A DNA stretch of 63,354 nt, the filler included, from Globobulimina sp. (taxonomy: Eukaryota): the NCBI GenBank assembly GCA_003354225.1. It is 9 parts of 9 records of this genome, joined end to end, with 100 filler letters (N's around TTAATTAATTAA, not from the genome) between each part and the next. Parts side by side here need not be neighbours in the genome. Positions count along the whole stretch, not along the records: positions 35,360 to 42,296 come from PIVH01000215.1; 8 more parts are not named here. One strand, written 5' to 3'. This document shows positions 28,844 through 48,870 of the stretch, piece after piece. The stretch's first letter is position 1. Each line of letters starts with the position of its first letter. Made by a program: the position numbers and the translations under genes. Below the pieces are notes generated by a model. The model saw only the letters and a list, made by a program, of their open reading frames with translations. It did not search any database and was not told where the DNA came from.

Positions 28844-30064
28844 TTACAATAACCAGAGACCTCTCATATATTTTTGTTGATAGCATTTCTCATTTTTAAA
28901 ATTTAATGCTTTCGAGATATCATTATTTACCACTTTCCATTGTTTAAATGTATTATCCCTCAAATCTAAATATTCAGCATATCCCCAATCTTTTTCATCC
29001 TTATTATATTTATAAAAATCGCCCGTAATCATTAATATGTTATTATCATCCATCATTTTTACAGTTGGATGCCATCGATGTTTGTACTTTAAATCTGGCA
29101 AATAATACCATTCATTTTTATGAAAATCATATCTTTCACATTTCCTATGTCCAGAATACGATGCCAGCGCATACACATTATTCCTATTCTTATCATAATA
29201 AATACCAAAACAAGAATGATGCACATTCATTCTCTTCGTATTTACCCATTTATTCCCATCAAAATCATATATCTCCGTACTGGACGTCGGTGTATTACCG
29301 CCACAAACAAATATCTTGCTATCCTTCTCCAAAAACACTGCTTTATGATTGATACGCTTTTTATTCATAACTGCGATCTTCTTACTGTTCCATTCGAATT
29401 TATGTCTACGCTCATTCCACTGCAACAATTGTACTTTTTTTGTGTCGCCACCCAAAGCAAACAAGCCATGCTTCGATGATTGTAATAACTCGCATCGATC
29501 GAAGCTCTTTCCACCATTTGCTGATAACAATCGATGTTGATCCACTTCTATTAAACTGGCGCTCATATCATAATTAATTGTTTGTTTCGATGCAGCTTCG
29601 ATACGAAATAAAACATGCAAATTTAAGTTATTTTGGGAATAAATTTTAGCATATTTTGGGAATAAGTTATCGCGAATAAATGGAGGGAATTTGTGCAATG
29701 AAAATAAACGAAAGGTGGTGCCATACACTTCAGTAAATAACTGCGTTAATGACGAGTTAATATCGAGGCGATGCAAATGGTTTGTTAGATTGAATGAGGA
29801 TAAATGTCCTTTTTGGATCAATGCTTTATTTGTTTCTGTAAATATTGCAATGTATTCATATTTCGATAAATCATACATGTAAAATAATAAAATGAGACGG
29901 ATTATATCGTAGGACAACAGCGGTGATCGCATGATACCATTCATGTAACACAGTACTAATTCATCCATTTGATGTAATGTTTCGCGTTTTAACTTTTTCT
30001 TTTCTTTTGAATATTTTTTCAGGTTAATATTGATCCAATCATTTGGTTTGTCTTTGCTTTCCAT
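28844..30064 (-). CDS. Kelch-repeat protein
   Basis: LFALGG, IFVCGG..STEIYDFDGNKW..MN, CERYDFHKNEW..LPDL, EYLDLRD..W. ATG at 30064 (MESKDK). Confidence 0.8.
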   Translation of the reverse strand: MESKDKPNDWININLKKYSKEKKKLKRETLHQMDELVLCYMNGIMRSPLLSYDIIRLILLFYMYDLSKYEYIAIFTETNKALIQKGHLSSFNLTNHLHRLDINSSLTQLFTEVYGTTFRLFSLHKFPPFIRDNLFPKYAKIYSQNNLNLHVLFRIEAASKQTINYDMSASLIEVDQHRLLSANGGKSFDRCELLQSSKHGLFALGGDTKKVQLLQWNERRHKFEWNSKKIAVMNKKRINHKAVFLEKDSKIFVCGGNTPTSSTEIYDFDGNKWVNTKRMNVHHSCFGIYYDKNRNNVYALASYSGHRKCERYDFHKNEWYYLPDLKYKHRWHPTVKMMDDNNILMITGDFYKYNKDEKDWGYAEYLDLRDNTFKQWKVVNNDISKALNFKNEKCYQQKYMRGLWLL

Positions 30065-30179
30065 GACAAAAACAATAACTGAACAAGGGCACAATTAGGC
30101 TCTGATTTGTGCTGATTTTTTTTGCTGCTCAAAAAGTTTTTTCATTTGTTTATGCCAACTTAGTAACACTTTTTTTATG

Positions 30180-30630
30180 TCAATCAAGGGGTTTAGTATA
30201 TTGTACAATTTCTGCAGTATCACCACTATTCCATAAACTGACACCAATAGCAACTTGTTTTGGAATGTTATATGCGACTGGATCAGTTTTTAGGTATTGA
30301 CCGTTTATTGCTATCAATAATACTCTTTCGTCTAAATCCACTTCAATTGTAATAATGGTATTATTTCCTTTTGTTAACGCATATCCTTTGACAAATTCTG
30401 ATCTTTTGTGACGAGACCCACCGTCCCATATCGCCCATGAATTGCCATCACAACCAACCCATTTTCCAACAGATATATCAAATGCTCTTCCAACTATTCC
30501 TACTCCCACGTGACCACAATTATAAACTTTTACATTTATAATATGTCGGCCTGATCTCAAGAATTGTGTCCGTATTGAACACTCCTTCCCAATTAAAGAA
30601 GCTTTACGACAATGTTTCGTAAAACATATA
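30180..30630 (-). pseudogene. SPRY/B30.2-like domain fragment without a clear start
   Basis: SGRHIINVKV, VGVGIV, NSWAIW, ITIEVDLDERVLLIAING, IGVSLW. The frame closes upstream near 30633 with no ATG. Confidence 0.5.
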
Positions 30631-30719
30631 TGTTACACCCATATTTTTCATTAGACAAACTGCTATGATATGGATATCAACATACTAATTATTCAATTTT
30701 ATCGCTCTTTATATCCATA

Positions 30720-35359: not shown

Positions 35360-35467
35360 CAAACAAAACCTAATATTTTAAAAGGCTTTTTATTATTCCA
35401 CTGCCAAATGAGGTTTTATACAACCAAACACAACACAACATATAATAACCATAATAATATTCGAATT

Positions 35468-35928
35468 AATAAATACGGGTCTATGAACGCACCGTTTACC
35501 GCAAAATCCACCCATAAATAAATACGGTGTTTATGTACACACCGTTTACCGCCAAAATCCACCCATAAATTAATACGGTGACTATGTACGTCGACCGTTT
35601 AACGCCCAAATCCTCCATAAATTAATACGGTGACTATGTACGTCCACCGTTTAACGCCCAAATCCTCCATAAATTAATACGGTACTATGTACGTCCACCG
35701 TTAACGCCCAAATCCTCCATAAATTAATACGGTGACTATGTACGTCCACCGTTTACCGCCAAAAACATCCATAAAATAATACGGTGACTATGTACGTCCA
35801 CCGTTTACCGCCAAAATGCTCCATAAAATAATACGGTGACTATCCACACACCGTTTACCTCCAAAATCGCCCATAAATAAATACCATAAATAAGTCCGGT
35901 GTCTATTTACACACCGTTTACCACCGAA
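35468..35928 (+). repeat. Tandem array, 9 units of ~50-52 bp (left subterminal array)
   Basis: Consensus ATTAATACGGTGACTATGTACGTCCACCGTTTA(A/C)CGCC(C/A)AAATCCTCCATAA; each unit contains the ACGGTG-N10-12-CACCGT palindrome. Confidence 0.95.
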
Positions 35929-36169
35929 CTAATGTTTCATTATCTCAAGTTTAAAAAGATTAGTAAAGTTGTTTTGCAATCTCAAGCTTAATGTTAACTC
36001 CGTAATAAAAGAAACAGAAATAAAATAATATTGAAACTATAAATAAAAGAAACTAAAATGAAATAATTTTGAATTAATTGAAAGGAAATAAAATGAAATA
36101 AAATAATATCGAAAGTTAAAAAAATGAATAAAATAATTTTGAAAGTAAAGAAAATGAAATAAAATGTAT

Positions 36170-38338
36170 TTATTGAAATCGTTTTAACATATTATGGTTA
36201 TTAACAGTATATATTAGTTTACATAATTTATTGAAACCAATGGATGCTCTCTGTGCCCTATGTATTTGTTTAATTGATGTAAAACTCTGCTCAACACATT
36301 CAATTCCTGTTGGCAGTTTACATAGTTTCAATGCCCATTTTGCTATTATCAATAACGAATTATTACTTTCACCAAATCTGCATTTTAAATTATCCCAATA
36401 CGTTTTATTGAATTCCCATGGACTTTCTGGTGAATTTACAAAAAATTCCATTCCATTACTGTTTAATTGCACAGCACCATTTTTATATATTCCTCGTATT
36501 TGTCGATAATTAAAATATTCTTTCTCAAATTGTGTATATAGTGAATCATTATTTATTTTATTTTTCATTAAAACTAAAAATGTATCCACTGAATTATTAC
36601 GAATAAATTTTCGACAACGAACATATCGAACGTCTAACATATATGACATAAAATGAACATCATCGTATATTAAATCCCAGGCATAAAATAAATCATTTAT
36701 TATTGAATTTTCTTTTGGTGTTCTTGAGGCGGAATAATAATTAAAATATTCCAATATTTTTATCCAATTATAATAAACCGTTGAAAGTGATGCATTTTCT
36801 ATTTATTTTTATTTAAATTTGGTGATATATATGTTAAGAAATATAATTATAAATACTAACCTTGAAATGTTTTATTGATGATATGGAATTCTGTGACATC
36901 TTTGAACATAATATTTACTTTATCCCAATGGTTCCAGTTTCGAATAATATCTGTATTTTTCTGTGAAATATATCCTTTCCAATCATCATTTGTTGTAGCT
37001 TCCTGTAAGCCAGCTCTCAACTTAGTTTGTTGTTTTAACTGATCAAATCTTGAATCCCATCGAGTAATTCCTGGATCTGCGATTCCAACACGCTTTTCTG
37101 AGCCAGCACCGCTGTCAATTTGTATTCTTTGCCGTATTTTATCATTTTTAATTGCAGCTTGTACACTGTCAACATCTTCTAATACTTTTTTATTTTCATT
37201 AATTTTAAAATATCTACCTAATGCAATTTGTAAACCATGCGAACCACAGCCAGGTTTTACGCCTCCTGTTTTATTTTTATACTCTTTACGCATTGATACC
37301 ATGGTAGCCTCGTTATCTGTTACTAATGCAATATCATTAAATTGTGCATCTATTTTTTTTAAATCTTTTTTTATAATATTTAATTTTTCATAATGTTGTT
37401 GAGCACCAAAAAAAGCTTGACCATTATGTCCAGAGACATCAACAACTAAAGGATATGGATTATTGATTGTAGTTAATATCACAGGTTGCTTGCAACGATC
37501 GCTGCTGCCATCATAACACATAGCCCATTCATGCTCGTCTGAATTTCTGATCACCTATAAAAAATAGTCAGGATCACACATCAAAATCAAAATTGAAAAA
37601 ATAAAAAAATATAAAAAGAATCGAACGTACATTATCTACAGACGTTTTAATATCATCATATAAATTATCCAACAACCTTCCGCCTGTTAAACTGCGCCCT
37701 GGCATGGCATATCCAGGACAAATATAACGGAACAATTCTTTAAATTCAACCTCTTCAACAATATTAAATTCGTGGTTATTAAAAACAACCCACTTTTCAA
37801 TCAATTTATCAATCATTCTTGAATGTTGATCAGATATTTTTTGCGGAAAAGGCGAGGGTGGATCGAGTTGCATTGGTTGGGTATGAACGTGGTTGTTGTT
37901 GCTATTATTGTAGTTATGATTATTGTGGTTATGATTGTTGTTTTTGTTTGACTGAAAATTAATATCGCAACTAATTCCATTTAATGATGGTAAGTGCATA
38001 ATTTCAGTTTGGGCATTTTCTTTGTCACTTTCTTCTAATTTTCGTTTCTTATTTTTTCGGTTAGTGATACGTAATTTTTCCTGTCGAGCTATATTTATTG
38101 CAGTGCTATCATCTTTAAACTGTTCACAATATAAAATATGATTACACAATGTTGGAATATCTGCACTTCTGGACAGTTCACATTTTTTGCAGCGGGCTAT
38201 AGTGGATACTTTCCTGATCTCCGTTTTTTCAATGTCGGAATAATAAATACGTTGAAAACGATCAAAATATGCCCAAATATCGTTTCCTTTACGCCCTACA
38301 CGATTATTAAATGGTTTTGCTTTTTCTGTTGTTGCCAT
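36170..38338 (-). CDS. hAT transposase, 676 aa; exons 38338-37631, 37554-36861, 36798-36170
   Basis: BED finger IWAYF..CKKC..NHILYC; FNIVE...FKELF...PGY..P.R; catalytic YDG and TDN; CGSH (CxxH); TRWDS; hATC VEQSFTS..IH..QRASI. GT-AG introns 37555-37630 and 36799-36860 give an uninterrupted 2031-nt frame. Confidence 0.93.
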
Positions 38339-38411
38339 TGGTTAAGGTGATTGTTTGTGATTCAATGACTAGTTACATTTAAAGTTTTTTTAAAATAGTC
38401 CACCAGAAAAA

Positions 38412-39432
38412 ATGTCAACAATTTGTTGGAGTATGAAATTACGAGAACGTTCGGTAACTCGACGCAAAAGAAAATTAATCAGTGACTTTTTTACATTATA
38501 TACAATCAGTGCAGTTTGCAGTTCGACTGGTTATATTTTACCAGATATACCAACAAAAGAAAAAGCTGTTTGCGTGAACTGTAAAGTAATGTTAAACGCA
38601 ACAGGCATGTTTTTTATTTATTGCTATGTATTATTGCTTACATTCACATGTTACATAATTAAATTTTAGATATGACGTTAACTGCGCACTTTGAAAAGTG
38701 TTTTTGTAAACATCATCAAATCAAAAAAAGAAATTAAATAAAAACACTTTAAGTGCACAAGAAAGAAAATATTTTGCTATTTTGTGCTCATTTAAGTTAT
38801 TAGATTTGGTATTATGTGGAATGATACGTGAGTTTAATGTATTTAGTGTGGCAGATATTGTAAGGTTGATTACCAAATTTATAATTTGCGGTGATAAATG
38901 GCGTCATTCAGTCCCAGAATATTCCAGATGTAATGCCATAAAATTAAATAAAAAACAAACGTTTATTTTAAAAAAAAAATGGTCGTACTCCCACCCAACA
39001 TTTGCATTAGGAACAGTAGTTGCGGATTATTCTGAAAATAAAGAGGCAGTTTGGGAGTGGAAGGTTGTTGTTAGAAAAACATTAATTGCACGCCCACAAA
39101 GTGACGCATTGACCGGTATTTATATTGGATTAAAATCTATAAATGATCCACAATATATTCATTTATCACATCCATGGTATCATTCAAGTATTGGCGCGTA
39201 TGTGCCAGGGTGGGCTGCTGCTGATTGTGAAACAAATAAAATAGAATTATTAAGTGGTGATTTGATTACAATAACACTTAACATGATAACTAAAACCATT
39301 ATTTATAAGGTTAATAATAAAAATATTAAAATATACACCAAAATTCCAGTTGTTAAACAACAATTTATTCTCTTTGCTGTTTTACAAGAATTGAACACTG
39401 GCGTTCAAATTTTATCATGTTCCTCCTCTTAA
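38412..39432 (+). CDS. Transposon passenger gene: BED-like finger + SPRY/B30.2-like domain; probable GC-AG intron 38605-38669 and 1-nt frameshift near 38708-38735
   Basis: Splicing gives ISDFF..KAVCVNCKVMLNATDMTLTAHFEKC. ORF 38782-39432 has ALGTVV, WEWKVVV, IYIGL, GDLITITLNM..KTIIYKVN. Confidence 0.55.
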
Positions 39433-39904
39433 ATACAAAATATTGGGATTCGAATATTGCTGACGATGATGCCATAAAAACGTATTCTTTATAAACGTTT
39501 CCATTCCATTATGATTTTATTTTCTATCTTTCTTCTTTTAATTTTATTCTATTCTTTCTTTACTTAGATCTTTCTATTTGAGTGATTTTATGTGTTTGAG
39601 TGATTTTATTTTTGTTTGTAATGTTCTTTCCAAATGCATCTTTTTATTTAGTTAGTCATTTTTGAAGTTACTTAGTCTTCGACAATCAGCATTTTTCGAT
39701 GGCACACAAGGTTCGTATCTATCATAAAATGAATGATCTATAGTTACAAAACAATTATACAGATTCTTAAACGTAAATGGATTTATTTAATGGAAATGGA
39801 TTTATTTATGGTAATTTTAACAGAAAATATGTTTATGGTAATTTTATAAGGCTGTAATGGATTTATTTATGGATGATACACTGCCATCGCAGCATTATTA
39901 TATT

Positions 39905-40222
39905 TGTGGTAAACGGTGGACGTACATAGTCACCGTGTTAATTTATGAAGGATTTGGGCGTTAAACGGTCGACGTACATAGTCACCGTATTATTTTATGA
40001 AGGATTTGGGCGTTAAACGGTCGTACATAGTCACCGTATTAATTTATGGATGTTTTTGGCGGTAAACGGTGGACGTACATAGTCACCGTATTATTTTATG
40101 GAGCATTTTGGCGGTAAACGGTGTGTGGATAGACACCGGACTTATTTATGGTATTTATGGGTGATTTTGGTGCCAAACGGTGTGAATAGACACCGTATTT
40201 ATTTATGGATGATTTTGGTGCC
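39905..40222 (-). repeat. Tandem array, 6 units, reverse complement of the left-array unit (right subterminal array)
   Basis: Repeated taaacggtggacgtacatagtcaccgtattaatttatgg. The outer flank attatggttattatg (40246-40260) mirrors ataataaccataat (35442-35455). Confidence 0.95.
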
Positions 40223-41281
40223 ATTACTGCATATTATTCGCATATATTATGGTTATTATGTGTATAAATGTGCTGGTTATTATGCGCATGGACATATGGA
40301 AGGAAAAATGATGTATTTATATGATTGCTTTTGGTGTTTTTCTAATATTTGTCTATCACTTTTCTGATATTAGAAAATGATTAGACAAAGATCAGAATAT
40401 CACCAGAAAACAATTTGAATTTGAAAATGATCTGTAAATGTTCGAAAATGATCAGAAAAACGATTTCCTCTGAAAATAATTCTAATATCATTTTATGCCC
40501 AGAAAACAGTCAGAAAACGTTTTTCTAAGTCAGACTTTGAAAATGCTGCAGCTTTGCCCTCGCCACCTTCACAGTGTCTTTACGATGCAAAAATCAGTCT
40601 CGTTCATTGTGAAATAGAAACACATCTTAAATGTACGGAAAGAATGGAAAAGAGGATAGTAATATCAAGCAATACAAATAGAAAACAAACAGTATTGAAC
40701 AGATACAAAACAACAAAGCCTTACCAAATACACTTCCTCCATCCAAACATAACGCATTACCTAAATATATCCCACCAACTTTCCAACAACAACACCAACA
40801 TTGCCAATACATTTGACACTTTAATAAAAAACATATTGCATCACAATAAACACACCATGAACGAGCTGATAAATAATCCTAATTTAAACAATAACAACCC
40901 GAACTTTGATAATAAACGTGACCACTGTACAGCAGGCATATCACCTGACTTTTTAGCCACTGCCGATATCCCTGCCCTGCCAAATTCTCCTACCATTTCC
41001 CCAATGCTCCGGTCTTCCAACCATCTCTTCCTTTGTCTCCATTATCTCTCTCCTCCATTTTTCCACCATGTATACATTTGTATTTATAATATCATCTTTG
41101 ATATCACTCATCGCGAGCAACCACCAAAAATCCGAGATACAAATAAAACACAGAAACGTGTTAGCCACTACTTCCAAAACTTGCTTTTCATCAACTTCAA
41201 AATCAAAACTTTCACTTCTTCCCACCTCCATCCTCTCTACAAACTTCCCTCACTAAATCTCTCTATTTATAACCAACACAA

Positions 41282-42296
41282 ATGGCAAAAGAACAAAAAG
41301 GTACTCCTAAATTTCAAAATATACAAAAACAGCAATATACCTAAAATCACATATAATATACATTTCATAGTTGATGAAGACTTTCCTTTTGAAGATGATG
41401 AGGATATGTCTGATAAATCCCACATCCCATTTCCAAGCAAATCCAACTCAAATCGCGTAATTAAATCTTGCAAAATAATCCCAAATCCCCTCAAACGTAG
41501 ATATGTCCGCTCCAACCTCTTCGATGCCAACCCGCCCTCCTTCAAAACCACCCGTTTATTCTCCATACAAAATCCCGGCGATAATATCAATAAACTTTCC
41601 TACATTTCGGGCATCCAAAATGTCCCATCCTCTGCCAAAACCATCAATATCCGGTGTACTTCCTCCATTGTACCAGACACTGCCACCACGTTCAGCCAAT
41701 ATGATGATTTGAAAATTAATTTCGACCAACAGCAAATAGCGACAAATCCCCATCGCACCGTCACCAAAACAAAAGCATATCTCCCAGCAACCCGCACCTC
41801 CCGCATGATCCAGAAATATTATCAAAAACAAGTGGAGCGTACTGATAAATGGCTCAATGCGGCAACGAAACACCATTCGTCGTTAAACGTGGAGCATAAT
41901 GCGCAGATCGTGTATTCCAAAGTGTTTATTAACGACCGGATAGTCGACAGAATATCCATTCGCGATGGCGATGAGTTTATTAAATCCCTGAAACATGCCC
42001 CAACCATCCAGACAAGAGCAGAATTATTACCCACTACGGCACCGCTCACCGTCTTATTTCGCTCCTCGTCGTATACCTATTACCCGAATGACACTGCTTT
42101 TTATAATTCATTAGACAAAATTGAGGGAGATACACAGGGAATTTTAACATATCTGAATCCATTACATGGCAATGCCAGAAAGACTGGCTCTGGTTTTAAT
42201 TATGTGGCGACGAACCAGCTTTTATTAGACTACATCACCGACATTATCGCACAGCCATTACTATTGCAGTACGAGGTATTATTCAATAACTATCTG
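41282..42296 (+). CDS. Hypothetical protein, 3'-truncated; probable intron 41301-41370
   Basis: ATG GCA AAA GAA CAA AAA G|GTACTC..TCATAG|TT GAT GAA joins the long open frame 40554-42296. Upstream part of that frame may be non-coding or further exons. No family recognised. Confidence 0.5.
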
Positions 42297-45848: not shown

Positions 45849-47159
45849 TCATGTAAATTTTATGTTTGGATTAATAATTATTATAGTTTCTTGATTTAAT
45901 GCCAATACTTTTTCAATGCGTGCATGTTCTGGAACATTTAATTCATCGCATTTTGATATAATATGCGGTTTGCATATTATTTCTGTTCTAATTATTGATG
46001 AACATTGAGAATATTCATTATCTCCAAAACATATCACATCATTGTTTCCTGTTAATAGTACATTATGTTGATCACCACAGCATGCTTGAATAATATTCGT
46101 TTTTTCCTTCACTTTTTCACCATCAAATACGTCAAATGGTGTTGCTATCTGATTATCAAATGTACCATTTCCAATCTGTCCACATTGATTATCACCAAAC
46201 ACAAAACAATTTCCATTCATATCAATACAAAATGAATGACTTCGTCCACATCCAATATCCTTTATTTTTATCTTGTTATCTTTAAAAAATTGATTATAAA
46301 TAGGAATATATACAATTTCTTGATGATTATAATTATTGTCAATTCCTAATTGATCATATTCATTGTCTCCAAATATAATTACATCAAAATAGTCAGTTAT
46401 CGCTAAATTGTGGTGTTTACCACATGCAATTTTATTAATTTTCGCATTATCGGGGATTTTTACCATTTGTGGTGATAATAATTGTCTATGTCCGTCAACT
46501 CCGCACTGCCCAGATCCGTTATATCCGGAACTCCATAACGTACCATTTGATGTTAGAAATAATGAGTGGAATCTACCACACTTTATATCAATGATGGAAT
46601 TATAATTAACAAAGATTGATTGGGTCATTTCATTTTCTATTCTAGTTAACAAAGATGCACCATTTGAAGTGTTTCCATTTCCAAAGGCACCCAAACCATT
46701 ATTACCTGACACATATAAGTTATTATCCATTGTATAGATAAATGTATGTCCTTCATTATATATTCCAGTTGATATTATCTTTGCTTTTTGCGTGATATTA
46801 ATGTCATTAATTTCTGTAAATTTATCAATCATTGAGCTTTTATGTTTTCTTATTATACCTAAGCGTGACCATTGATTATATCCACACGCAAATATCTCGG
46901 AAATTGCAGTTGCGATGATTATACTATTAAAGTTGACAAATATTTTATTAAAATCTGTGACTAAAGTTGATAAATTGTGGAGTTTGACGAAGTGTTTTTG
47001 TCTTTTTGATACTGCAAATGCACCATATTCATTCTTGCCAATTCCATAGATATCAAAATTACAATTGTATAGACCTATTATATGACCAATGCTTTTAGGA
47101 ACCAATAAATGATATTCTTTTTCTTTTCTTCGCAAATATCCAGCAACTAAGTAAGCCAT
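45849..47159 (-). CDS. RCC1/BLIP-II repeat protein
   Basis: ACGYNQWSRLG, KCGRFHSLFL..SGYNGSGQCG, ACGKHHNL..FGDNEYDQLG, GCGRSHS..FGDNQCGQIG, CCGDQHN. Start placed at MAYLVAGYLR. Confidence 0.88.
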   Translation of the reverse strand: MAYLVAGYLRRKEKEYHLLVPKSIGHIIGLYNCNFDIYGIGKNEYGAFAVSKRQKHFVKLHNLSTLVTDFNKIFVNFNSIIIATAISEIFACGYNQWSRLGIIRKHKSSMIDKFTEINDINITQKAKIISTGIYNEGHTFIYTMDNNLYVSGNNGLGAFGNGNTSNGASLLTRIENEMTQSIFVNYNSIIDIKCGRFHSLFLTSNGTLWSSGYNGSGQCGVDGHRQLLSPQMVKIPDNAKINKIACGKHHNLAITDYFDVIIFGDNEYDQLGIDNNYNHQEIVYIPIYNQFFKDNKIKIKDIGCGRSHSFCIDMNGNCFVFGDNQCGQIGNGTFDNQIATPFDVFDGEKVKEKTNIIQACCGDQHNVLLTGNNDVICFGDNEYSQCSSIIRTEIICKPHIISKCDELNVPEHARIEKVLALNQETIIIINPNIKFT

Positions 47160-47199
47160 TAATTTTAAAAATGCGCAAGTAACTGAATTAATTACTGAC

Positions 47200-48870
47200 A
47201 TGGACCTCGCAACTAAACAAACAATGTTCAATGCCAAACCATTAGTAAATTTATCCAATGACATTGCGTACATCAATACCAACTTGAATAAAATATGTGC
47301 ATTGTGGGTCAAACGCAAAACTGAGATATTATTTGAATCATTCGTCGACCAAGAAACAGAACTAATCTTTGATGCTCTCGTTGGTGACTTTAAAGATATT
47401 CGATGTAATTATCACCGCATTTATAAATATCAATTTACAGACATACATTACACATTATTTACAAAGAAATTGACTCAACACAAAGATGTAATATTATTAA
47501 TGAATGGCAAACATAAAAAATATATGATTCAATCATATGATATCACTGACTGTATACAACATTTTATTGTTGATATATACAAATGGTTGAAACTACCAAC
47601 TCCAATCATACAAATTGGAAACCTCAAACGAAATGAAAACAATATTAAAACAGAGGCAGACGATGAAGCTGATCATGATTCATTGTCAATACATGCAATG
47701 ACTGAGATATTTGGCGAAGTATTCGCTGCCTCAAATGAGTGCCAATTGGATAAATTGCAATTTGTACTTTGTTTGGAAGCACGTTGTGGTATATCTCAGA
47801 TTTGGAATGAAAACACGAGACAGAAATTGCAAATATTATATGAAAATATAATTGCTTATATAGCTATAGATATCGATGAGGAATATAATGAGGAATACAA
47901 TGAGGAATATGAAGAATATGAAGAATCTCCCGAATATGTAACATTTTCAGATTTTATTAATTTTTTTTCATTTAATATGAATTATTTTGAACATATTTGG
48001 GAAGAAATTAAACTGTCCATTTATAATTCGCCTCTGTCAAAAAAGAATAAATTACATCGAAATATTGATGCAATATCAAGCGAAATATACAAAGAAAAAT
48101 TATCAGATATTGGACAATTAATTGATTTTATGCAAGAATCGATAATTTTTCATGAAATTGAAGATAATGAATATAATAAATTTATAAAACACATAAAAGA
48201 TGAATTATTGAGTAAATTATTTAAAAATCATGCCATTGTTGGAATAAATAAGGATTTGGATGAATATTGCCATATAAATAGATGTAAAACATGTTCATTT
48301 CCCACGCGATTTGATGTGATTAAGTCAATAAATGTGATAGGTAATAAAACTAAGAATGAGTCAGGTATACCATTACAATGTGATGCATCCATATTAATTG
48401 CAGGATATATTAAATTAATTAAACTAAAATATACATTATCGTCAAATATAAGTTTTGCGATCGAACAAATTATTTATTTATATTTTGAACCGTATACTGT
48501 AATTTCTGTGGAATGTGATGATAAAATATGTATTGTGTCGGAGAGCGATGATGAGATATCACTCATATCAGTCATGTCTGAATTCGAATTATCATCGAAT
48601 TGCGAAGATGATCATGATACAATGGATGGAAACACTTTTAATTCGGATATTATAATTTGGATAAATACTTTGGAGAATGGTCGTTTTACAAAATATTTGG
48701 ATGTATTAAAGAATGGATTTAAGGAATACGAGATTTTTACTGTATATGATTTAGCTAATTTATGCTCTGCAGAATTGAGTGAACCACCATTTAGTATTAA
48801 AATATTTAGAGACAAACGAGATTTGGTCAAATATTTTAAAATGTTAAAGAAACTGAACAGTAATTTATAA
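47200..48870 (+). CDS. Hypothetical protein with possible C-terminal SAM-like domain
   Basis: 556-aa ORF; C-terminal WINTL..GRFTKYL....F.EYEI...DL..L...EL pattern. Confidence 0.55.
   Translation: MDLATKQTMFNAKPLVNLSNDIAYINTNLNKICALWVKRKTEILFESFVDQETELIFDALVGDFKDIRCNYHRIYKYQFTDIHYTLFTKKLTQHKDVILLMNGKHKKYMIQSYDITDCIQHFIVDIYKWLKLPTPIIQIGNLKRNENNIKTEADDEADHDSLSIHAMTEIFGEVFAASNECQLDKLQFVLCLEARCGISQIWNENTRQKLQILYENIIAYIAIDIDEEYNEEYNEEYEEYEESPEYVTFSDFINFFSFNMNYFEHIWEEIKLSIYNSPLSKKNKLHRNIDAISSEIYKEKLSDIGQLIDFMQESIIFHEIEDNEYNKFIKHIKDELLSKLFKNHAIVGINKDLDEYCHINRCKTCSFPTRFDVIKSINVIGNKTKNESGIPLQCDASILIAGYIKLIKLKYTLSSNISFAIEQIIYLYFEPYTVISVECDDKICIVSESDDEISLISVMSEFELSSNCEDDHDTMDGNTFNSDIIIWINTLENGRFTKYLDVLKNGFKEYEIFTVYDLANLCSAELSEPPFSIKIFRDKRDLVKYFKMLKKLNSNL

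Follow-up and report, generated by a model that had tools for sequence, protein, structure and literature searches.

The locus on contig C215 raises the question of whether a hAT transposon of Globobulimina sp. carries a second gene beside its transposase, and whether such a gene serves the element or merely travels with it. The window, by which we mean the whole stretch of 63,354 nucleotides analysed, is composed of nine contigs of about 6.9–7.0 kb each, separated by N-spacers. They were drawn from a 70 Mb assembly of 48,370 contigs that represents an AT-rich, intron-bearing eukaryote. The second gene, referred to here as the passenger, lies on C215 (window positions 35360–42296). An initial annotation had described it as a gene divergent from the transposase that joins a second BED finger to a host-type SPRY domain and makes the carrier a two-gene hAT.

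Boundaries and transposase of the carrier element

C215 begins inside the element. Its first segment (35360–35467) matches the left end of a derivative on contig C9143 at 82%, and the 202 nt that separate the terminal inverted repeat (TIR) from the matching contig-start position in C9143 place the left TIR of the present element about 200 nt beyond the start of C215. This left subterminal region is followed by an array of 8.2 copies of a 52-bp unit (35468–35884, plus strand), which is inverted relative to a right array of 4.2 copies (39908–40123, minus strand). The right TIR has a 21-bp core beginning with CA (40536–40556, minus strand), so that the true end of the element is at 40556; the core has 16 exact matches in the assembly compared with 0 for a reversed control. 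Directly outside it lies an 8-bp target-site duplication (TSD; 40557–40564, plus strand), and the identical 8-mer precedes the left TIR on contig C1728, where the left junction of this insertion is found. Comparison of nine right ends with seven left ends recovered three exact 8-bp flank pairs, this one included. The element measures about 5.4 kb, and with its 8-bp TSD, short TIR beginning with CA and subterminal repeats it has the features of a hAT; the first two are listed as hAT marks in Table 1 of PMC4423477. Several right ends differ from that on C215 by 0–1 base over the first 80, which indicates that the family moved recently. The passenger sits between the two inverted 52-bp arrays, as the initial annotation had placed it, and inside the TIR and TSD. 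To the right of the element, 40566–42296 (plus strand) contains an open frame of 577 codons that is strongly C-skewed and matches no clear Pfam family. This frame stays open for 58 codons into the C1728 flank across the empty site, and the hAT may therefore have landed in its 5′ part.

The transposase is an intact protein of 676 residues encoded on the minus strand (36170–38338, ATG at 38338) and interrupted by two GT-AG introns (37630–37555 and 36860–36799). Its N-terminal finger has the form C-x2-C-x13-H-x3-C. A homologue on contig C1117 shares 50–68% identity per exon and the same intron positions, and the CCHC finger is conserved between the two, as are the acidic-core motifs, which we take to be of the D/D/E type. 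The Pfam zf-BED model scored below its cut-off against the transposase (E 0.58), no other hAT family in Pfam matched it, and we found no PDB sequence match. Relatives outside the assembly were sought among 1,463 candidates, none of which qualified, and none was present in metagenome or viral contigs; a search of metagenomes with the TIR returned seven stretches, all of them chance 22-mers without homology to the element. The start codons of the transposase (38338, minus strand) and the passenger (38412, plus strand) face away from each other across 73 nt (38339–38411), confirming the divergent arrangement first described. This gap is probably a promoter shared by the two genes.

First exon of the passenger, its probable GC-AG intron and probable zinc finger

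Passenger exon 1 (38412–38604, plus strand) spans 64 codons, including a basic stretch (RRKRK) and a CxxC motif. It is coding: its in-frame score of 0.035 is close to the mean of held-out coding sequence (0.036) and far from the wrong-frame mean (−0.118), and only 1.2% of wrong-frame scores rise above zero. Exon 1 has no relative elsewhere in the genome at the DNA or protein level, and as a query on its own it retrieved nothing from Pfam or the Atlas.

The exon is followed by a probable GC-AG intron of 65 nt (38605–38669, plus strand). The segment contains 22% GC and has an intron-minus-coding score of 8.7, whereas the 99th percentile of coding chunks is 2.4. The donor at 38605 carries +5G/+6T, like all four homology-supported transposase introns (58–76 nt). 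Introns were graded here exclusively by composition scores; de novo splice-signal learning and a hexamer count were too noisy for donor statistics. Excision of 38605–38669 gives the ISDFF..KAVCVNC..TLTAHFEKC reading of the initial annotation, within an 86-residue product that stops at 38735–38737.

The predicted zinc-finger core, C-x2-C-x13-H-x3-C (38562–38701, plus strand), forms solely if this segment is spliced out. Its 13-residue spacing is that of all four BED cores of the same subtype in the genome. Two of these comparison cores come from a protein on contig C37864 (L029, 128–688, minus strand) that is single in the genome and combines two tandem BED fingers of 13-residue spacing with a long Ser/Tyr/Arg-rich tail. 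This protein reaches 24.7 bits with Pfam zf-BED, above the cut-off, and may represent either the N-terminal part of a transposase or a BED protein in its own right. In an ungapped profile of the two transposase cores, the score of the passenger finger was reached by 24 of 5,000 shuffles and by none of 36,796 background windows. With all four cores, it was reached by 10 of 20,000 shuffles and by 2 of 71,394 background windows, both of which are zinc fingers. Among the 45 splice options that stay open, the 38605–38669 intron gave the highest finger score; corrected for these options, P is about 0.02, a value that is partly post hoc because two of the cores entered the profile only once the first comparison had been made.

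The zf-BED family has a conserved N-terminal motif of Trp and other aromatic residues. The Trp of all four comparison fingers is missing from the passenger, which has ISDFF instead and keeps the Phe two to three places further on. The earlier claim of a second BED finger thus stands as far as spacing is concerned, which exceeds chance in the ungapped test, but not in local HMMs, where the finger came 54th and 248th against roughly 1,000 shuffled sequences and was not significant, nor with respect to the absent Trp. We consider it probable, from its sequence, that this is a BED-type zinc finger, short of a proven member of the zf-BED family. It shows no DNA similarity to the finger of the element's own transposase (score 67 compared with 79.5 ± 7 for shuffles) and so is not a recent duplication of it.

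Helical box and SPRY domain

Downstream, the frame 38710–39432 is open for 240 codons. Among 2,000 shuffles of the region, none had an open frame of at least 212 codons and the longest reached 153, which bears out the second frame of about 240 codons reported initially. Its coding score is 0.018, compared with −0.07 to −0.18 in the other frames. The frame lies one base out of register with that of the finger. Because it has no Met before the box described below, it needs an upstream exon, for which exon 1 is the sole candidate.

The N-terminal part of this frame contains a degenerate helical box of host type (LVLCGMIRE..DIVRLITKF..GDKW, 38803–38901, plus strand), which aligns with a host gene on contig C9306 at 26% over 91 residues (pairwise E 2e-7). 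An HMM of the box region built from eight seeds, six of them near-identical, did not raise the passenger above 500 shuffles. The remainder (38887–39432, plus strand, stop at 39430–39432) is well supported as a SPRY/B30.2 fold by sequence profiles and modelling. In the Atlas, which uses no alignment, the SPRY cluster scored 0.92 and the F-box plus SPRY cluster 0.91, with two unnamed clusters higher (0.96 and 0.95), and all ten best named matches of the SPRY half belong to one family or clan. An HMM of 29 host SPRY regions gave the passenger 18.6 bits, compared with 9.1 for the best of 300 shuffles. A structural model using 22 host SPRY rows reached a pLDDT of 71.7 (29 for the single-sequence model) and matched SPRY structures first (VIA, Z 15.5, rmsd 3.2, 160 aligned residues), although this match is partly circular because the model was built on the host-SPRY alignment. 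The host-type SPRY domain of the initial annotation is therefore upheld by three approaches that agree, even though Pfam was silent: no family matched the passenger pieces, and the PF00622 cut-off was not reached. Searches for homologues of the SPRY frame yielded none among 150 candidates and none among 1.84 billion representatives, and a profile search returned 13 generic SPRY proteins, none of them close (best pairwise E 0.11).

SPRY proteins form a very large family in this host, with 150 matches scored among 329 candidates. The closest relative of the passenger is the stand-alone gene on C9306, which likewise encodes the box and then the SPRY domain (27% identity, genome E 0.0027), and the box-plus-SPRY layout recurs in 7 of the 29 extracted host SPRY regions. 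Judged by similarity and layout, the downstream frame is a diverged member of this large host family. We found no paper on an expanded SPRY family in a related foraminifer. Behind the stop codon, a T-rich region (39433–39850, plus strand) is the probable 3′ UTR; its T fraction is 0.56, compared with 0.61 behind the transposase stop.

Several other host genes touch on this architecture. A recently expanded subfamily of highly similar box-plus-SPRY genes is represented by L072, L074–L078, L080 and L083. The window also contains host genes for a Kelch protein (28844–30094), a SPRY protein (30180–30632) and an RCC1-repeat protein (45849–47408), all on the minus strand; the Kelch and RCC1-repeat genes have a similar N-terminal helical box.

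Distribution of the passenger and the question of neutral cargo

The passenger is single in the assembly, both as DNA, where a search returned one match, itself, and as protein, where the best relatives share 27% and 29% identity. In the DNA run X1, 38875–39244 was covered by a single contig of uniform depth at 80% likeness. The lack of any close host donor in these searches speaks for a long residence in the element; fragmentation of the assembly may hide such a donor. With 5% simulated neutral divergence, the SPRY frame remained open in 10% of copies; with 10% divergence, in 1.6%. The open frame thus points either to selection or to a very recent capture, in which case a near-identical donor ought to be present.

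The sole other transposase-bearing relative in the assembly is a sister hAT on C1117 (61% alike). No passenger homologue is present in the 1,008 bases upstream of its transposase; the contig ends before the TIR, and a gene could lie farther out. A stop-riddled frame in this region was considered as a decayed passenger and rejected, as it showed no DNA or SPRY similarity and no Pfam match; part of it is a foldback repeat that also occurs on contig C430. Copies of the foldback piece are found at 440–546 of C1117 (L011) and at 446–551 and 755–861 of C430 (L097), where they form an inverted pair inside a transposase frame that is presumably Harbinger-like.

The derivative on C9143 keeps both element ends and lacks both genes, and X1 contains a joint of 36029 to 39857, a deletion derivative that matches it. 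At least two kinds of non-autonomous derivative with the element's ends are represented by C9143 (L005), L006, L007 and L019, one retaining the 52-bp arrays and another whose interior has diverged. Since deletion derivatives without the passenger are mobile, the gene is not needed in cis for movement. Its absence from these derivatives and from the upstream bases of C1117 argues against a two-gene design shared by the whole family, and goes part of the way towards a refutation named in the initial annotation, that of other copies lacking the gene.

In X1, contig depth stood at 17–18.5 across both genes, compared with 10.3 for the flank and 50–60 for the element ends. These values would fit about two full and four deleted copies, a hint only, as contig depth is no copy number. 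At 37484, an X1 contig has T where the window has G, the sole listed full-depth single-base difference in the element body. Runs X3 and X4 contained next to no words of the element, and X2, from another study, gave short pieces at low depth. One low-depth X2 contig differs from 39475–39615 by 7 letters and 20 gaps and is possibly a diverged, though short, copy; two X2 transposase pieces are 99–100% alike.

We tentatively read the passenger as an optional, element-borne accessory gene, intact or freshly broken, in one hAT subfamily, and hold this with slightly less than even confidence. Its main competitor is neutral cargo of the Pack type, a recent pickup of a host gene (box plus SPRY, perhaps with the finger exon) whose donor is unassembled or lost and whose one-base break marks the first step of decay. 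This is a serious possibility, though we would stop short of calling it probable. The great size of the host SPRY family, the same layout in the stand-alone gene on C9306, the apparent frameshift and the absence of the gene from the derivatives and from the upstream bases of C1117 are all consistent with it, as is the fact that Pack-hATs are known in plants, according to PMC8903248. Against it, no donor was found at either the DNA or the protein level, the genome contains nothing else related to exon 1, and a finger with hAT-type spacing is unlikely to occur on cargo by chance. The missing donor and the transposase-type finger on the cargo lead us to favour a long, selected residence. What speaks against it is that the frame seems broken, that the gene is missing from the derivatives and from the upstream bases of the sister, that a single copy is assembled, and that the assembly is fragmented enough to miss a donor. 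Between an accessory gene and neutral cargo, the choice is roughly balanced.

One gene or two at the junction

The finger frame continues into exon 2 (38670–38737, plus strand), which ends in TAA and contains the A-run junction zone, where the gene shows either the frame offset or a second intron. With the short intron only, the product ends before the SPRY part. The one-base offset noted initially is present as assembled but need not be a frameshift, since four in-frame splice models would give proteins of 273–299 residues. A second intron at 38706–38803 would yield 285 residues with the finger complete, and one at 38698–38753 would yield 299 residues with the last Cys of the finger lost. Alternatively, a single longer intron from the 38605 donor, of 157 or 199 nt, would give 287 or 273 residues and lose the finger. 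The two candidate second introns have donors without +5G, and their composition scores (0.7 and 5.1) are ambiguous. Programmed −1 frameshifting relies on a slippery heptamer; by inspection, the codons before the stop form no canonical one, and we discarded this option.

The long introns would make the likeness to BED accidental: the element would express an intact box-plus-SPRY protein of 273–287 residues with an unrelated N-terminus. Both long splices are in frame, the 38803 acceptor, with TAG at its end, is rich in T, and the finger HMMs were not significant. In contrast, the four homology-supported introns are short, a good acceptor is present at 38669, 38710–38805 has a score typical of coding sequence when read in the SPRY frame (0.031), and the finger appears with the short intron only. 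We regard an accidental likeness as improbable.

The assembly may have been made from X1, which is thus no independent witness. X1 contains one contig over 35814–38733 that differs by one letter and has no gap, the A-run included, so the one-base offset is present in the X1 data. The next contig begins at 38739, and this junction (38734–38738) is the sole X1 break in 4 kb; a second allele or copy that differs here is possible, and none appears among the X1 variant rows listed. We consider it very improbable that finger and SPRY were joined artefactually at this A-rich junction, through the assembly or through alleles. The long contigs do end and begin there and no listed piece bridges it, but they lie 5 bases apart, differ little in depth (16.9 and 18.5) and continue into the transposase on one side and towards the right array on the other; this continuity, with the derivative joint, places both halves in one element.

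A proposed role for the passenger

Returning to the accessory-gene reading, the passenger would be chimeric, combining a BED-type zinc-finger exon with a gene captured from the host box-plus-SPRY family, and would be transcribed from the putative shared promoter in the direction opposite to the transposase. During a long stay in the element, it would have lost close similarity to host genes while its frames were kept open, and it was therefore probably under selection. The present copy may have been freshly broken by one base or be completed by the weak second intron. By analogy with hAT BED domains that bind subterminal repeats, the finger may bind the element's own 52-bp arrays. The box-plus-SPRY half may, like box-plus-SPRY proteins elsewhere, recruit a host partner, for example a ubiquitin-ligase scaffold and its target, and this partner might tune the transposase or local chromatin. 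In its fullest form, the proposal is an active two-gene hAT in which a BED-box-SPRY protein of 285–305 residues, restored by the second intron or encoded by an unbroken sister copy, binds the arrays and brings in a host adaptor of the ubiquitin-ligase type as an accessory regulator or anti-silencing factor. We consider this specific version unlikely, though worth stating.

If the chimera is expressed and selected, a cut-and-paste element has captured a host adaptor domain and wired it to a DNA-binding finger of transposon type. If it is neutral cargo, the element is still an unusual, autonomous Pack-like hAT, albeit of more modest interest.

Comparison with known systems

The carrier resembles hATs such as Hermes, Ac and Tol2/Tgf2 in its CA TIR, 8-bp TSD, subterminal repeats, single transposase and CCHC finger. 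In PMC4423477 and PMC10368747, a short CA TIR, 8-bp TSD, subterminal repeats and an N-terminal finger are given as hAT features; the former states that hATs usually encode one transposase and the latter that the BED domain of Hermes binds subterminal repeats. The C215 element differs from this superfamily by its second, divergent gene and by a transposase too diverged for Pfam or PDB matches. Our literature search, with most subscription journals outside its coverage, found no hAT with an accessory gene; the cases in PMC4423477 and PMC3212995 concern other superfamilies. Nor did a matching case appear among the papers listed for accessory proteins of DNA transposons in connection with F-box and SPRY domains.

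With Pack-TYPE elements and Pack-hATs, the C215 element shares host-derived coding sequence between its TIRs. Pack elements are defined as non-autonomous in PMC8903248, whereas the present element has an intact transposase and its cargo is nearly a whole gene for which no donor was found. The cargo matches host genes at the family level only (27% protein identity), with no DNA donor in the fragmented assembly.

A second element-borne gene, possibly one that binds tandem repeats in the element's non-coding DNA, also recalls VANC and the second genes of Harbinger, CACTA and Mutator elements. VANC of VANDAL is an element-borne accessory gene whose targets often form tandem repeats (PMC5735166), and second ORFs are reported for Harbinger, CACTA and a rice Mutator family in PMC4423477. 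These belong to other superfamilies, however, with which no homology is expected, and the Harbinger and CACTA genes are features of their families, whereas the passenger is seen in one of two related elements.

The order of modules, with a transposon-type DNA-binding module N-terminal to the adaptor module of an expanded host family, resembles fusions of transposable-element domains with F-boxes. Among those treated in PMC12062965, the Mariner-HTH F-box A2 fusion of Caenorhabditis and the fish CxC7-F-box fusion, as seen in zebrafish, are host genes; the paper also notes an F-box in one Zisupton isoform and found no evidence that transposable elements have captured F-box domains. Telomeric retroelements have captured F-box gene fragments, as described in PMC13534243. 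In contrast to the TE-domain/F-box fusions, the passenger chimera lies inside an element, its finger is of the BED type, and its box is at most a candidate F-box. If the chimera proves to be expressed and selected, the direction of capture would be the one for which PMC12062965 found no evidence.

The combination of a helical box with a SPRY domain is also found in FBXO45/FSN-1 (F-box plus SPRY) and SPSB (SPRY plus SOCS box) proteins. Atlas clusters with the corresponding Pfam sets scored 0.91 and 0.89 for the passenger, respectively, and SPSB3 is among the top fold matches. FBXO45/FSN-1-type and SPSB-type proteins act as cullin adaptors or ligase substrate receptors. The passenger differs from both in matching no Pfam F-box or SOCS family and in having a degenerate, lineage-specific box motif; should the chimera prove to be expressed and selected, it would offer a handle on the role of the large box-plus-SPRY family of this lineage.
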